Origin: an uncultured Methanoregulaceae archaeon
GTDB lineage: Archaea > Halobacteriota > Methanomicrobia > Methanomicrobiales > Methanospirillaceae
Assembly (NCBI GenBank): GCA_963737635.1
Contig: CAVTTL010000001.1
Coordinates: 480,001-544,000, forward strand
DNA length: 64,000 bases
Direction of reading: 5' to 3'
Positions 53,336-61,857 of this stretch are shown here, piece after piece (positions within the stretch are counted from its first letter, which is position 1; each line of letters begins with the position of its first letter). A model generated the notes under the pieces. That model did no database searches, was not told the origin of the DNA, and worked only from the letters and a program-made list of their open reading frames with translations. Position numbers and translations under genes: made by a program.

Positions 53336-56160
<2,825 letters not shown>

Positions 56161-56174
56161 GGTAACAACCACAA

Positions 56175-56245
56175 AGCCAGAACCCGGAATCGAACCGGGA
56201 TACGCTGATCTGCAGTCAGCCGCGTAGCCTTTCCGCCATTCTGGC
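56175..56245 (-). tRNA. tRNA-Cys(GCA), canonical (G37, U73)
   Basis: GCCAGAA/TTCTGGC acceptor, GCTGA-CTGCAGA-TCAGC anticodon arm, CCCGG-TTCGATT-CCGGG T arm; ends 14 nt before the pscS ATG. Confidence 0.96.
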
Positions 56246-56252
56246 ACTAGTC

Positions 56253-56267
56253 GTTCACAATTGTGAC
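56253..56267. promoter_or_regulatory. Palindromic operator candidate (Cys-island motif) upstream of tRNA-Cys/pscS
   Basis: GTTCACAATTGTGAC; perfect core TCACAATTGTGA. Confidence 0.7.
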
Positions 56268-56345: not shown

Positions 56346-56417
56346 AGCCAAGACCTGAATTCGAACTGGGCTGTAGCTGATCTGCAGTCAGCCGCGTAGC
56401 CACTCCGCCATCTTGGT
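56346..56417 (-). pseudogene. Degenerate tRNA-Cys(GCA) (A1-C72 mismatch, broken T stem)
   Basis: Anticodon arm identical and D arm near-identical to the neighbouring tRNA-Cys; acceptor ACCAAGA/TCTTGGC; T arm CCCAG-TTCGAAT-TCAGG. Confidence 0.75.
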
Positions 56418-56963: not shown

Positions 56964-56978
56964 TTAACAATTGTGAAT
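56964..56978. promoter_or_regulatory. Operator candidate upstream of the wHTH regulator
   Basis: TTAACAATTGTGAAT, just downstream of GTATATAT. Confidence 0.62.
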
Positions 56979-57091: not shown

Positions 57092-57295
57092 GTGTATAAA
57101 GTGCTGGAAACGAACGGTAAGCTAACGCAGAAGGATCTCATCCGTGAGACTGCACTTCCGTCACGTACTGTTCGGTACGCATTGAACAGGCTCAAGAACG
57201 AAAAGTTCTTGATCGAACATTATTACTTCATTGATGCGCGGCAAAGCCTGTACGGCCTGAACACCAAACCGCAGGAAGAGGTGGTTGCTGTATGA
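57092..57295 (+). CDS. Small archaeal winged-helix DNA-binding protein (true start probably further upstream)
   Basis: In-frame upstream LPPSAKL, then VYKVLE..GKLTQKDL..ETALPSRTVRYALNRL..DARQSLY. Confidence 0.85.
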   Translation: MYKVLETNGKLTQKDLIRETALPSRTVRYALNRLKNEKFLIEHYYFIDARQSLYGLNTKPQEEVVAV

Positions 57296-57782
57296 TGCGT
57301 CCTATGTGTACAACTGGCACGTTCCTCATTTTTCCGGGACAGTGGTAATCCACCACCGTCCCCACTATAATTTTTTTTGGTGATTGCTTAATTAAAGCCA
57401 CCAGGAATCAGTACTATTATGGAAAAAATTCAAAAAATCTCATTTATTTTCCGATATGGAGACGTTCATGGGGGCTTCTCCCCCGCCACTGGGGCTTCCC
57501 CTATGTTGCGATGATGCCGTATTACCTAATCTCATGAAATAATTTGAATTTTCTTGATCTGACTCATATTTCATGTGGAATATCAATCACATGAAAAATT
57601 TTAGTGGCACCAAATGATGAATCACCTTTTTTTATTTTCTCCGCTCCCGTGATGTTACGTTTCCTCGATGTATTTGGGCTCTTTTGAGGATTGGTTCCGG
57701 ATTTAAGAGGAATTTAAAAAAGGTAATAAGGCTTTGGAAAAGTCATCTCGTTAATCCGGCAGACTTATTTTCGAGAGACCCA

Positions 57783-59043
57783 TTAGAGCGGCTTATCAGT
57801 GATAGGTATTCCGGCGGCAACCATACGCTCGCGGATCAGGTCCGCAATGTCAAACTGTTTTTTTGCCCGCAGTTCTGCACGTATATCCTGCAGGACACTG
57901 AGCGGCGCACTTGTCTCACGCAGGAAATTGATGCCGAGAATCTCCCCGTTCTCCCGCAATGCCTCAAGATCGCCGCTTGCTGCAAGTGCCTGGATTGCTG
58001 CCATTGCCATGGGCGTGTTGAGATCAGATTCCATAGCATCGACAAACGCTTTCCGTCCCTTCGTATCTGGCCCCTTATCTTTGGTTGCAATAGCCCGGAT
58101 ATGGTCGAGCCCCCGGGCGGCGTTAGCAAACCCCTCATTAGTTGCCTGGAGCGGCGACCGGTAATGGGAGAGAAGGATGAAGTACCGGAGTATATCTTTA
58201 TTCCATGTTTTGAGAGTATCCCGGATCGTGACAAAGTTCCCCAGAGACTTGGACATCTTTTCGCCTTTTAGCGTAAGAAATCCCGTGTGCAACCAGTATC
58301 TCACCATCGGATGCCTTCCTTCCAAGGACTCCATCTGGGCGATTTCCGCCTCGTGGTGAGGGAAAATCAGAATCTAATCCCCCGCCGTGGATATCGTACT
58401 GCTGGCCGAAGTATTTCTCGGAGATCGCTGTGTCCTCGATATGCCAGCCGGGCCGTCCCCTGCCCCAGGGGGATTCCCAGGTGTACTCCCCGAATTCACC
58501 GAGTTTCCAGAGCACAAAATCCAGAGGGTTGTGCTTAGTTGCGTCGGTTATGCGGCTGACACGCTTTACCCGTTCCTGCCCTGAAAGTTCCCCGTTATGC
58601 CCGAATGTGTCGAGATTGAAATAAACGCCGGTGTCCGTGATATACGCCACATCTCTTTCGACGAGCCGCTGTACCTGGTTGATGATCTCGGGGATATGAG
58701 TGGTAGCCCGGGCATAGTAACTGACAGCGTTGATCCCAAGGGCGTGCATATCCCGGAGGTATTCAGTCTCAAACTTCCTTGCAAGGACACTCTGGGGCAT
58801 GCCCTCCTCTTTTGCACGGTTGATAATCTTGTCGTCAACATCCGTGATATTCTGGAGATAGAATACTTCTTTGCCGGTCGACCGGAGGTACTTTGCAAGG
58901 ACGTCAAAGACAACATATGTCCTAGCATGACCCAGATGCGCGTAATCATAAACGGTCGGACCGCAGACAAAAAGCGCGACCCTGTCCGGGTTGAGAGTCA
59001 CAAGCGGTTCAACGGTTCTTGACAACGTATTATACAGTTCCAT
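57783..59043 (-). CDS. cysS: Cysteinyl-tRNA synthetase, compact (~420 aa; frameshift near 58370)
   Basis: CGPTVYD..HLGHAR, NITDVDDKI, DFVLWK, SPWGRGRPGWHIE, DIHGGG.DL.FPHHE, KMSKSLGN, ADLIR. Confidence 0.93.
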
Positions 59044-59064
59044 AGCAGTGATCCTCTTTTTTGA

Positions 59065-59137
59065 CGCCGGCGGAGGGAGTCGAACCCCCAGACATTCGCT
59101 TTGCAGGCGAAGGCATTTACCGCTCTGCCACACCGGC
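59065..59137 (-). tRNA. Atypical tRNA-Cys(GCA) (A37, apparent G73)
   Basis: GCCGGTG/CGCCGGC acceptor followed by G; TTCGC-CTGCAAA-GCGAA anticodon arm; GGGGG-TTCGACT-CCCTC T arm; 21 nt before the cysS ATG. Confidence 0.88.
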
Positions 59138-59182
59138 TTTTTTCCAAGGACTTGTGTTTCGGATTATTGAACATTTGTGTGA

Positions 59183-59197
59183 GTTCACAATTGTCAA
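59183..59197. promoter_or_regulatory. Operator candidate upstream of tRNA-Cys/cysS
   Basis: GTTCACAATTGTCAA (minus strand TTGACAATTGTGAAC). Confidence 0.65.
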
Positions 59198-59734
59198 TAT
59201 TCGCGTAATGTCAAATATCAGAGATGACAATACCGATCTTTTGCTGCTCATTGGTGTCATCTTATCTTTTCTGACAGGAGATGTGCATGAAATGTGCGGC
59301 TCTGTCATGAAAAAGAATATTATCCCCGGGAAGGCTAACGAATCTCCCGGGCACCATGAAGGGAGGCGATGTAGTTGTGCTGGTGCATGAGGCTTTTTAA
59401 ATTCCGGTAGAGATATCGGCCATCACGGGCGAGATGCCGCCTATGACCCTTCCGGGTTGGGTGCGAGGACGTGAAATCAGGATATGGTGCTCGCCGACAC
59501 ATACCAGGGATCACAGGTCATCCACAGATTATAGTGAGTGCATCCAATCGTGAGACTTTATCGATCAACCTCCGAAGCGTACAATACTGCCCGGAGCTCC
59601 GGATACCGCTGAATCGTTCCACCGGCTTTACCGGTAGTATGTCAGCAAAGGCCCGGGTAGCGGGACCGGGTATATCCCGGCCTGCTGATGGTCCATCGAT
59701 ATTCGCGTGGTGTGCGTTCGTGGCTATTTTTCCC

Positions 59735-59877: not shown

Positions 59878-59892
59878 TTAACAATTGTGAAC
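59878..59892. promoter_or_regulatory. Operator candidate upstream of cysK
   Basis: TTAACAATTGTGAAC, downstream of TATAATA (59856-59862). Confidence 0.68.
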
Positions 59893-59946
59893 TTCCGGAA
59901 CCTCGCCGGTTTGTGCGGGATGTTCCAGAGTCATAGAGGGAACAGT

Positions 59947-60879
59947 ATGACAAAAATTTATGAGAATATTACAGCAACAATAGGCAACACCCCGCTCGTA
60001 CGGCTGAACCGCCTTACCAGCGGTGCCGGCGCAACGGTGGTTGCCAAGCTTGAATCGTTCAACCCACTGAGCAGCGTCAAGGACCGGATCGGAGTTGCAA
60101 TGCTCGATGATGCTGAAAAGCGCGGGTTGATCAAAAAGGATACGATCATTCTCGAACCAACAAGCGGCAATACCGGGATTGCGCTTGCGTTCGTGAGTGC
60201 GGCCCGGGGATATAAACTCACGCTGGTGATGCCGGAGACCATGAGTGTCGAGCGGCGGAGACTGGCAAAAGCATTCGGTGCGGAGCTGGTGCTTACACCG
60301 GGTGCTGAAGGGATGAAAGGGGCTGTATCCAAGGCCGAGAAGATGGCAGCAGAGAACCCGAAGTACTTTTACATTCCCCAGCAGTTCAACAACCTGGCCA
60401 ACCCGGCAATCCACCGGAAGACTACTGCTGAAGAGATCTGGCGCGACACAGACGGAAAGGTCGATATTGTCATCGCCGGCGTGGGGACGGGAGGAACGAT
60501 CACTGGTATCGCAGACGTGATCAAGAAGAGAAAACCTTCGTTCCGTGCGATTGCCGTTGAACCCGATGCTTCCCCGGTACTCTCCGGAGGGTCTCCCGGT
60601 CCTCACCGCATCCAGGGAATCGGCGCAGGTTTTGTCCCGGAGGTACTCAAGCGCGAGCTAGTGGACGAGATTATTCGTGTCAAAAATGAGGATGCCTTTG
60701 AAATTACGCGGAGACTGGCAAAAGAGGAAGGTATCCTTGCCGGGATCTCCAGCGGCGCAGCGACCTATGCAGCACTTGCGGTCGCAGCGCGTCCGGAAAA
60801 CAAGGGCAAGCTCATTGTCGTTATCCTGCCCGACACCGGGGAACGCTACTTAAGTATCCCCGACCTGTTTGTGGAATAA
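59947..60879 (+). CDS. cysK: Cysteine synthase A (O-acetylserine sulfhydrylase)
   Basis: [52 protein letters not shown]. Confidence 0.96.
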
Positions 60880-60890
60880 GTGAGACGGTC

Positions 60891-61857
60891 ATGATTTTTG
60901 ATCGTCTCCGGGAGGATATCCGAGCTGATTTTCTCCAAGGATCCTGCTGCCCGCTCCACTCTTGAGGTCCTCTTCTGTTACCCGGGGCTTCACGCCCTCT
61001 GGTTCCACCGCAGGGCCCACTGGCTCTGGATCCACGACCTGAAATTCTGGGCCCGGTTCGTTTCCCATATAGGCAGGTTCCTCACCGGGATTGAGATCCA
61101 TCCCGGTGCCATAATCGGGCGGCGGGTGGTCATCGACCATGGTATGGGGGTCGTTATCGGCGAGACAGCCGAGATTGGGGATGATGTCCTCATCTACATG
61201 GGTGTGGTGCTCGGCGGCACGGCGCTCGAGAATGTCAAGCGCCACCCGACTGTCGAGGACGGTGTGATCCTTGGATCCGGCGCTATCGTCCTTGGTCCCA
61301 TCCGTATCGGTAAGGGCGCAAAGGTCGGTGCCGGGTCAGTTGTAGTCCGGTCCGTCCCGCCCGGTGCGACGGTTGTCGGTGTTCCGGGCAGGATCGCCGG
61401 CCCGGAGCCTGGTTCCCCAGATGAGACGATCGAAGAGGTGATGCCCGACCCGATGCTCCGGGTGGTGAGCCGGCTGCTGGACCGGCAGAACCAGCTCGAG
61501 GAACGGCTCCGCACTTTCGAGCAGGCGCAGCCAGGCCCAATCTCCCCCGCAACCCGGCAGGAGATCGTCTGCGAGAACGAGATCCGAGAAGCGTTAAAGG
61601 AAGTGATTGATCCCGAGGTAGGTATTGATATCGTTGACCTCGGGCTCATCAAGGAGATACGGGTGAAAGGCACCAGCGTAGAGATCGACATGGTCCTTAC
61701 CTGCAAAGCCTGCCCCCTCTCCGATCACCTCTCCGGGCAGGTGCAGCGCAAGGCGTTCGGAGTCTGCGGCATTGAGCACGTTACCGTGAACGTGCTTGAC
61801 GAGCCGTGGAACTGGGACCGGTTTGTGAAGCAACGGGGAAACTTCAGACAGATCTGA
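60891..61857 (+). CDS. cysE: Serine O-acetyltransferase fused to a C-terminal DUF59/SufT (FeS_assembly_P) domain (frameshift near 60926)
   Basis: [10 protein letters not shown] / [38 protein letters not shown]; then [25 protein letters not shown]. Confidence 0.92.

Follow-up and report, generated by a model that had tools for sequence, protein, structure and literature searches.

The uracil at the discriminator position of tRNA-Cys (U73) is treated as a near-universal key to cysteine identity, and from a lineage in which it has changed one can learn, as from an experiment of nature, how synthetase and tRNA shift together to a new identity rule. A tRNA-Cys with G73 has been described in some Methanoregula and Methanospirillum species, together with altered acceptor-binding regions of the cysteinyl-tRNA synthetase (CysRS) and possible orthogonality (Mukai et al., 2022, PMC8762117, citing Perona, 2018). 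Other discriminators are reported as well, with C73 in some Methanobacterium species and A73 in Methanolobus and Methanocella (Mukai et al., 2022, PMC8762117). The G73 tRNA-Cys and its main interpretation, possible orthogonality, are already in print (PMC8762117), and no biochemical test of such a tRNA was found in the literature searched. Because the idea is published, the value of a further example lies in its detail and its testability. Here we consider a tRNA-Cys(GCA) gene with a G73 discriminator that lies directly upstream of cysS in the DNA of an uncultured Methanoregulaceae archaeon (GCA_963737635.1, contig CAVTTL010000001.1, positions 480,001 to 544,000); this whole stretch of 64,000 nt is called the window below, and positions are counted from its first letter.

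We think it fairly probable, though by no means assured, that the gene belongs to a dedicated CysRS/tRNA-Cys(G73) pair, which would be charged with cysteine beside the route that uses O-phosphoseryl-tRNA synthetase (SepRS), SepCysS (the Sep-tRNA:Cys-tRNA synthase) and U73 tRNAs, and would probably be insulated from that route.

A tRNA-Cys(GCA) gene with a G73 discriminator

On the minus strand, a tRNA-Cys(GCA) of 73 nt at 59065-59137 is recognised by both ARAGORN and Rfam (RF00005), the latter with 62.1 bits (E 3.2e-12, gathering score 29) over the full length of its model (1-71). The acceptor stem, GCCGGUG/CGCCGGC, has seven base pairs with a single U6.G67 wobble, and base 59065 (C on the plus strand), which comes next after the stem, is the unpaired G73. 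The molecule is a 7/5 cloverleaf with A37, C47 and C59 and a variable loop of 5 nt, and CCA is not encoded. Of the standard tRNA-Cys identity set for CysRS and SepRS, it has the GCA anticodon and lacks U73. From the discriminator to cysS the strand reads G-TCAAAAAAGAGGATCACTGCT-ATG: the spacer of 21 nt (59044-59064, minus strand) runs through U74, an A-run and GAGGAUCACUGCU to the cysS ATG at 59043, and holds a GAGGA Shine-Dalgarno-like stretch and no T-run. These results agree with the sequence-only reading of the window, which had described a well-paired tRNA-Cys(GCA) with A37 and G73 directly upstream of cysS; the downstream frame matches Pfam tRNA-synt_1e with 250 bits.

Across the genome (2.46 Mb in four contigs), four tRNA-Cys genes are found among 50 ARAGORN calls, and the other three all have U73 and G37. 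The body of the G73 tRNA matches each of two U73 genes at 43 of 74 aligned positions, whereas between those two genes 55 of 73 positions agree. It had been read from the sequence that this body is unlike that of two other tRNA-Cys genes; the difference is borne out, but the number is not, as the genome has three others, one of which (C1:591021-591092) lies outside the window.

G73 in sequencing runs and orthologous loci

Four public metagenome runs, each of a different study (X1, X2, X4 and X7, of which X1 is possibly the source sample), supplied Logan contigs that were aligned to 57700-59300; 16 sequencing runs had been listed, of which 13 contain at least part of the stretch, and no RNA run was among those containing it. 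At base 59065 the contigs of all four runs (X1 record 1, X2 record 8, X4 record 13, X7 record 17) show zero differences. The locus was found by DNA search in five of 40 other genomes, all five among the 24 sampled from the same genus, and ARAGORN gives G73 in each of the five. A scan of genome contigs with the intact CysRS of another locus (L002) as query yielded 39 loci, of which 37 are archaeal and 79-100% identical to the query; by record title, their carriers are Methanoregula, Methanoregulaceae, Methanosphaerula subterraneus, Methanospirillum, one Methanoculleus (palmolei) and other Methanomicrobiales. In all 37 archaeal loci ARAGORN places a tRNA-Cys(GCA) with G73 at 17-27 nt upstream of cysS. 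G73 is genuine and no sequencing error. The suspicion that one spurious G had displaced a U73, which was reasonable in view of an indel error 694 bases away in cysS, is refuted by the four runs and the 37 loci.

The remaining two of the 39 loci are from candidate-phyla-radiation bacteria (45-46% identity), and ARAGORN finds no tRNA beside cysS in either. They are the only non-archaeal matches and are too distant for a bacterial donor to be named.

A further arrangement considered was an eighth acceptor pair (-1:73), with U74 as the true discriminator. Base -1 is G in 23, A in 12 and T in five of 40 distinct loci. With a purine at -1, 35 of the 40 cannot pair this base with G73, and the arrangement is rejected for most loci; it is possible in the five with T. 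These are L003, L038, L040, L045 and L048, four of them Methanospirillum, and for them ARAGORN draws an 8-bp stem with a U.G pair and a U74 discriminator. At base 74, 38 of the 40 loci have T. An encoded CCA after U74 (GUCCA) was also rejected, since it is found in only six of the 40 loci, which is not clearly above chance given the conserved TC.

The archaeal loci and 14 from an order-wide search provided 57 copies of the tRNA, with 35 distinct sequences. Over 20 cloverleaf pairs in the 35 sequences (700 cells), 99.0% are paired, and both-sided changes occur in four of the 20 pairs (7:66, 28:42, 51:63 and 52:62, numbered as in tRNA). The observed pairing and covariation values are reached by none of 500 shuffles, and slid controls are 44-57% paired; as the divergence is low, with a mean column identity of 94%, the covariation signal is modest but clean. 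The 35 sequences show no variation at G73, the anticodon G34-C35-A36, U8, A14, G18/G19 and, in the T-loop, U54, C56 and A58, and U55 is present in at least 90% of them; the extraction pattern fixes the terminal G, so the count for G73 rests on the ARAGORN locus counts (37/37 and 5/5). Judged by its sequence, the element in the window is a canonical cloverleaf tRNA gene, for which we infer a mature form that ends in CCA and is charged. As a separate observation, one orthologue of this tRNA (L041, L063) has C33 in place of the near-universal U33.

A two-gene cassette with a distinct CysRS

In an order-wide sample of 201 genomes, the window's own included, this type of CysRS (78-94% identity) occurs in 14 other genomes: 12 of the 43 from the same family, with 7 of 15 for the genus, one of 43 in a second family and one of 20 in a third. 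A search for the G73 tRNA covered 34 of the sampled genomes, each at least 94% complete. It is present as one copy adjoining cysS in all 14 genomes that have the CysRS type, and absent from all 20 that lack it. By this distribution, the tRNA and cysS are a two-gene cassette, an accessory module in some Methanomicrobiales.

The cysS gene of the window (57783-59043, minus strand) is the sole cysS of the genome, the remaining Pfam tRNA-synt_1e matches being weak hits to other class I synthetases. It stands in two frames, and the break falls within the conserved GGxDLxFPHHE stretch. One letter, base 58371, is absent from the contigs of X1, X2, X4 and X7, and with the read-supported base count the gene encodes 419 aa with no stop, of which 380 agree with the protein of L002. 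An assembly error, one surplus base, thus accounts for the break, and genuine pseudogenisation of cysS is ruled out; in relatives the gene is intact at 419-422 aa. Frame problems are met elsewhere in the assembly, where SepRS is also in two frames (C1:1129196-1129200), and in two further loci (L049 and L052) cysS ends early, with the same cause suspected. Given the indel errors of the assembly, frame breaks in it are not to be taken as pseudogenes without a check against reads.

When compared with 1.84 billion representative proteins, the CysRS has a best match of 87% identity, and the next matches are at 52-55%. For closer comparison, 39 distinct clade sequences were aligned with 139 representatives and E. 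coli CysRS (140 others in all), with 10 representatives outside 380-560 aa and five clade loci with partial or frame-broken open reading frames left out. The short length of the clade enzymes comes from deletions in the helical region ahead of the C-terminal anticodon-binding domain. They keep the HIGH-type and KMSKS motifs, the zinc ligands C28, H234 and E238, and W205, and have D in place of C209, as do 36 of the 140 others. Two conserved positions carry near-unique substitutions: the position of E. coli Y152 (N150 here) is N in 38 of 39 clade sequences vs one of the 140 others, and that of E. coli P192, in the GEPxW stretch (Y187 here), is Y in 38 of 39 vs none of the 140. On this alignment the CysRS is a distinct short-form clade.

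One family of the order (f2) has a CysRS homologue that is 32-36% identical (L068-L079 and L081), with an adjacent tRNA in none of 13 loci. It has N, V or T for the zinc ligand E238 and a gap at E. coli L442, and its match stops near residue 320 of 419; a tRNA-Cys with U73 and G37 is present in the four of five f2 genomes where a tRNA-Cys was found. Going by these features, the homologue may be a CysRS-like paralogue with another function. For want of E238 and a C-terminal domain, it is possibly no genuine CysRS and did not serve as a U73 control.

The SepRS/SepCysS route in the same genome

The genome also encodes SepRS (TIGR00470, 406 bits), and the window holds a SepCysS of 454 aa (54796-56160, minus strand), matched by Pfam SepSecS/Aminotran_5 and by PDB entries 3wkr and 5x6b at E 3e-86. 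In M. jannaschii, SepCysS gates U73 via R345, G346, F347 and G364 (Chen et al., 2017, PMC5688128), and the change U73G lowers binding to SepCysE-SepCysS (PMC5688128). Aligned with the M. jannaschii enzyme, the SepCysS of the window is identical at R344, R345, G346, F347 and G364.

An archaeal-type tRNA-Cys(GCA) with U73 and G37 (56175-56245, minus strand; ARAGORN, Rfam 57.6 bits) lies 14 nt upstream of SepCysS. This tRNA-Cys(U73)-SepCysS layout mirrors that of tRNA(G73)-cysS, and it is found likewise in L023, L026 and L039. A weak tRNA-Cys-like gene next to it (56346-56417, minus strand), also with U73 and G37, is called by ARAGORN and reaches 31.4 bits in Rfam against the gathering score of 29; it has an A1.C72 mismatch and mismatches in the T stem, and may have arisen as a copy of the adjacent U73 tRNA-Cys that is now in decay. 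Beside the anticodon and U73, the determinants on the SepRS side are G37, A47 and A59 (review, PMC9976931). None of G37, A47, A59 and U73 is present in the G73 tRNA, and all four are in the tRNA at C1:591021.

A probable dedicated pair and the alternatives

In a dedicated pair, transcription would begin upstream of the tRNA and take tRNA and cysS into one transcript. The tRNA would be freed by RNase P and RNase Z, which would leave a cysS mRNA leader of about 20 nt with the GAGGA stretch, and CCA would be added to it. RNase Z cuts after the discriminator more readily when a uracil follows. The clade-specific CysRS would charge the G73 tRNA with free cysteine, its substitutions adapting it to G73. 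The U73/G37 tRNAs would be served by SepRS/SepCysS, and G73 with A37, C47 and C59 would probably exclude the tRNA of the cassette from that route. That a U73 tRNA-Cys stands in the same place before SepCysS argues that both are ordinary tRNA genes co-transcribed with enzyme genes. Co-transcription, charging by the clade CysRS and insulation are what we infer from these arrangements. Among the options offered by the sequence-only reading, a co-evolved pair is the best supported, by adjacency and co-occurrence, by the near-unique CysRS substitutions and by a tRNA without the SepRS/SepCysS determinants.

Several points weigh against a dedicated, insulated pair. The tRNA and cysS are adjacent, so their strict co-occurrence follows from linkage and is no independent proof of functional dependence. 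Position 37 is G in six of the 35 distinct orthologues, and with such variation A37 cannot be a constant element of a barrier. The positions of Y152 and P192 would lie in the acceptor-binding insertion of CysRS (about residues 131-208), and their nearness to base 73 is conjectural. One 61-nt X7 contig, of depth 4, has two differences, one of them at 59103 (anticodon position 35); it is probably from the tRNA of another organism. In addition, SepRS is reported to be relatively insensitive to changes at position 73, and SepCysS to accept a G73 Sep-tRNA(Sec) in vivo (PMC8762117, PMC5688128).

These last two findings also favour a rather unlikely but serious alternative, that of a real, chargeable tRNA outside any insulated pair: CysRS would charge both G73 and U73 tRNAs, and G73 would be a tolerated, inherited quirk of an extra isoacceptor linked to cysS. 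Close relatives carry the cassette unevenly (7 of 15 genomes in the genus have it), and one lone genome of another family has it at 78-79% identity; together this suggests transfer as a unit, so that its features may reflect ancestry. Against this stand the fixation of G73 in all 35 distinct sequences, where other positions do vary, the clade substitutions at two conserved CysRS positions, and the rank of U73 as the strongest single CysRS determinant in tested systems (PMC8762117, PMC9976931). A CysRS that used the U73 tRNAs of its host would, moreover, need no tRNA of its own in 37 of 37 archaeal loci.

The short distance of 21 nt from tRNA end to start codon, with GAGGA between and no T-run, and a spacing kept at 17-27 nt, fit a tRNA-like leader that works mainly in cis and decodes little; CysRS would bind the uncharged, tRNA-shaped 5' end of its mRNA and repress translation, as in the case of thrS, or tRNA processing would set the fate of the cysS mRNA. 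We regard this as improbable. The element is a complete canonical cloverleaf, at 62.1 bits and with all tertiary-contact bases, and as such is an expected substrate of RNase P and RNase Z that would be detached from the mRNA. The known thrS operator mimics the anticodon arm only, the U74 seen in 38 of 40 loci agrees with processing of the 3' end after position 73, by the preference of RNase Z, and an ordinary-scoring U73 tRNA-Cys (57.6 bits) occupies the same position before SepCysS. The non-chargeable feedback mimic that had been proposed finds no specific support here. To our knowledge no other synthetase reads GCA, and charging with another amino acid, with UGY read ambiguously, is very improbable. 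G73 is the discriminator of several other tRNA families, among them Asp, Asn, Sec and Pyl (PMC9499178), but the GCA anticodon is invariant, the variable loop of 5 nt is not that of a SerRS/PSTK substrate and the strict linkage to cysS points to CysRS, so that this option of the earlier reading gains no support either. That G73 is a sequencing or assembly artefact of a true U73 has a negligible probability; the assembly does have indel errors (the surplus base 58371 in cysS, SepRS in two frames), but the four runs from four studies match at 59065 and G73 recurs in the 37/37 and 5/5 loci of other assemblies.

Neighbouring genes and a shared palindrome

Divergent from the tRNA-cysS unit are two genes of cysteine synthesis on the plus strand. 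These are a cysK-type O-acetylserine sulfhydrylase gene (59887-60879; Pfam PALP, 256.8 bits; likely start ATG 59947) and a cysE-like gene (60898-61857) for a serine-acetyltransferase-like hexapeptide protein with a C-terminal FeS_assembly_P domain (Pfam Hexapep, FeS_assembly_P). The fusion of hexapeptide and FeS_assembly_P parts is an unusual tie of cysteine synthesis to Fe-S assembly. A cysK homologue lies at most 2.5 kb from cysS in 28 of the 37 archaeal loci, and the cassette thus tends to sit with genes for the free cysteine that CysRS needs; at times cysE is near it as well. A small winged-helix protein (57092-57295, plus strand; Pfam HTH_24/MarR_2), a candidate regulator, has a homologue beside cysS in 19 of the 37.

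A 14-bp palindrome, TTnACAATTGTnAA, is found 47-60 nt upstream of the tRNA 5' end (59184-59197), where it overlaps an A/T-rich TATA-like stretch. Further copies are upstream of cysK (59878-59891), upstream of the winged-helix gene (56964-56977) and at C1:434935-434948 (L089:2936-2949), between an iscS-iscU-thiF-type operon and an HTH/PP-loop/FdhD-type operon that are divergent. A half-site, ACAATTGTGAAC, lies 7 nt before the U73 tRNA of SepCysS (56253-56264). The four copies of TTnACAATTGTnAA in the 2.46-Mb genome are all ahead of cysteine/sulfur genes, against a chance number estimated at about 0.15, and the three occurrences of the 12-mer ACAATTGTGAAC in the whole genome are all at this locus. 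We see in the palindrome a candidate operator for a regulon of cysteine/sulfur genes, for which the winged-helix protein (57092-57295) suggests itself as the candidate regulator. In relatives, similar sites are found near cysK (in many loci), the winged-helix gene and SepCysS. When the 150 nt upstream of the G73 tRNA were scanned on the tRNA strand, with up to two mismatches allowed, none of 56 loci of relatives had a copy, and the tie of the cassette to the regulon may thus be limited to this species and its closest relative.

A wider reading, which we hold only tentatively and consider possible rather than probable, is that one cell runs two mutually insulated channels to Cys-tRNA, each with its own tRNA gene ahead of its enzyme gene. 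The G73-cysS channel would use free cysteine, with cysK and cysE linked to it, the U73-SepCysS channel would serve tRNA-bound synthesis, and the two would share a palindrome and a regulator; the G73 cassette would amount to a synthetase/tRNA pair that is orthogonal by nature and moves horizontally. Since both units, cysK-cysE, the iscS-iscU operon and the winged-helix gene are behind the same palindrome, one regulator could shift cysteine supply between the channels.

Three other ARAGORN calls in the genome are of uncertain standing. A 96-nt tRNA-SeC(tca) at C1:623973-624068 (minus strand) and a tRNA-His(atg) at C1:1924866-1924940 are possibly false positives; a 90-nt tRNA-Ile(tat) at C1:1664868-1664957 may be another, or a gene with an intron or a modified anticodon.

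Comparison with known systems

If truly insulated from SepRS/SepCysS, the cassette would be a ready-made orthogonal cysteine pair for genetic-code engineering, and would show how methanogens separate the free-cysteine and tRNA-bound routes. For work of this kind the window offers a strict two-gene cassette, the candidate specificity residues N150 and Y187 of the 419-aa enzyme, a SepCysS with the U73 gate and possibly a shared regulator site.

Like the cassette, the translational operator of E. coli thrS places a tRNA-like RNA directly before the start codon of the cognate synthetase. That operator is a partial mimic of tRNA-Thr, of its anticodon arm, which lies over the ribosome-binding site and can be neither processed nor charged, whereas the element in the window is a complete tRNA gene with a 7/5 cloverleaf that lies outside the GAGGA stretch. 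A special tRNA-Cys with its own CysRS variant is also known from bacteria, as selC* tRNA-Cys and CysRS* (Mukai et al., 2017, PMC5389517), but the selC* tRNAs are 8/4, tRNA-Sec-like and U73 (PMC5389517), whereas the tRNA of the window is a 7/5 molecule with G73.

Dual routes in one cell are shared with Methanosarcina mazei, where CysRS and SepRS prefer different isoacceptors (Hauenstein and Perona, 2008, via PMC9976931 and PMC8762117). All isoacceptors of M. mazei have U73 and the preference lies in core nucleotides, whereas here the discriminator itself differs and the tRNA is joined to cysS. Two PylRS/tRNA-Pyl pairs in one archaeon, with G73 and A73 (PMC9499178), are likewise two pairs for one amino acid that are split largely by the discriminator; they concern another synthetase class and another amino acid, and their orthogonality is experimental while that of the pair considered here is proposed from sequence. 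The closest described system remains the G73 tRNA-Cys of Methanoregula and Methanospirillum, with which the window shares the lineage, G73, the coexistence with SepRS, altered CysRS residues and a proposed orthogonality or preferential use. There is no essential difference between the two, and the window is another carrier of it.

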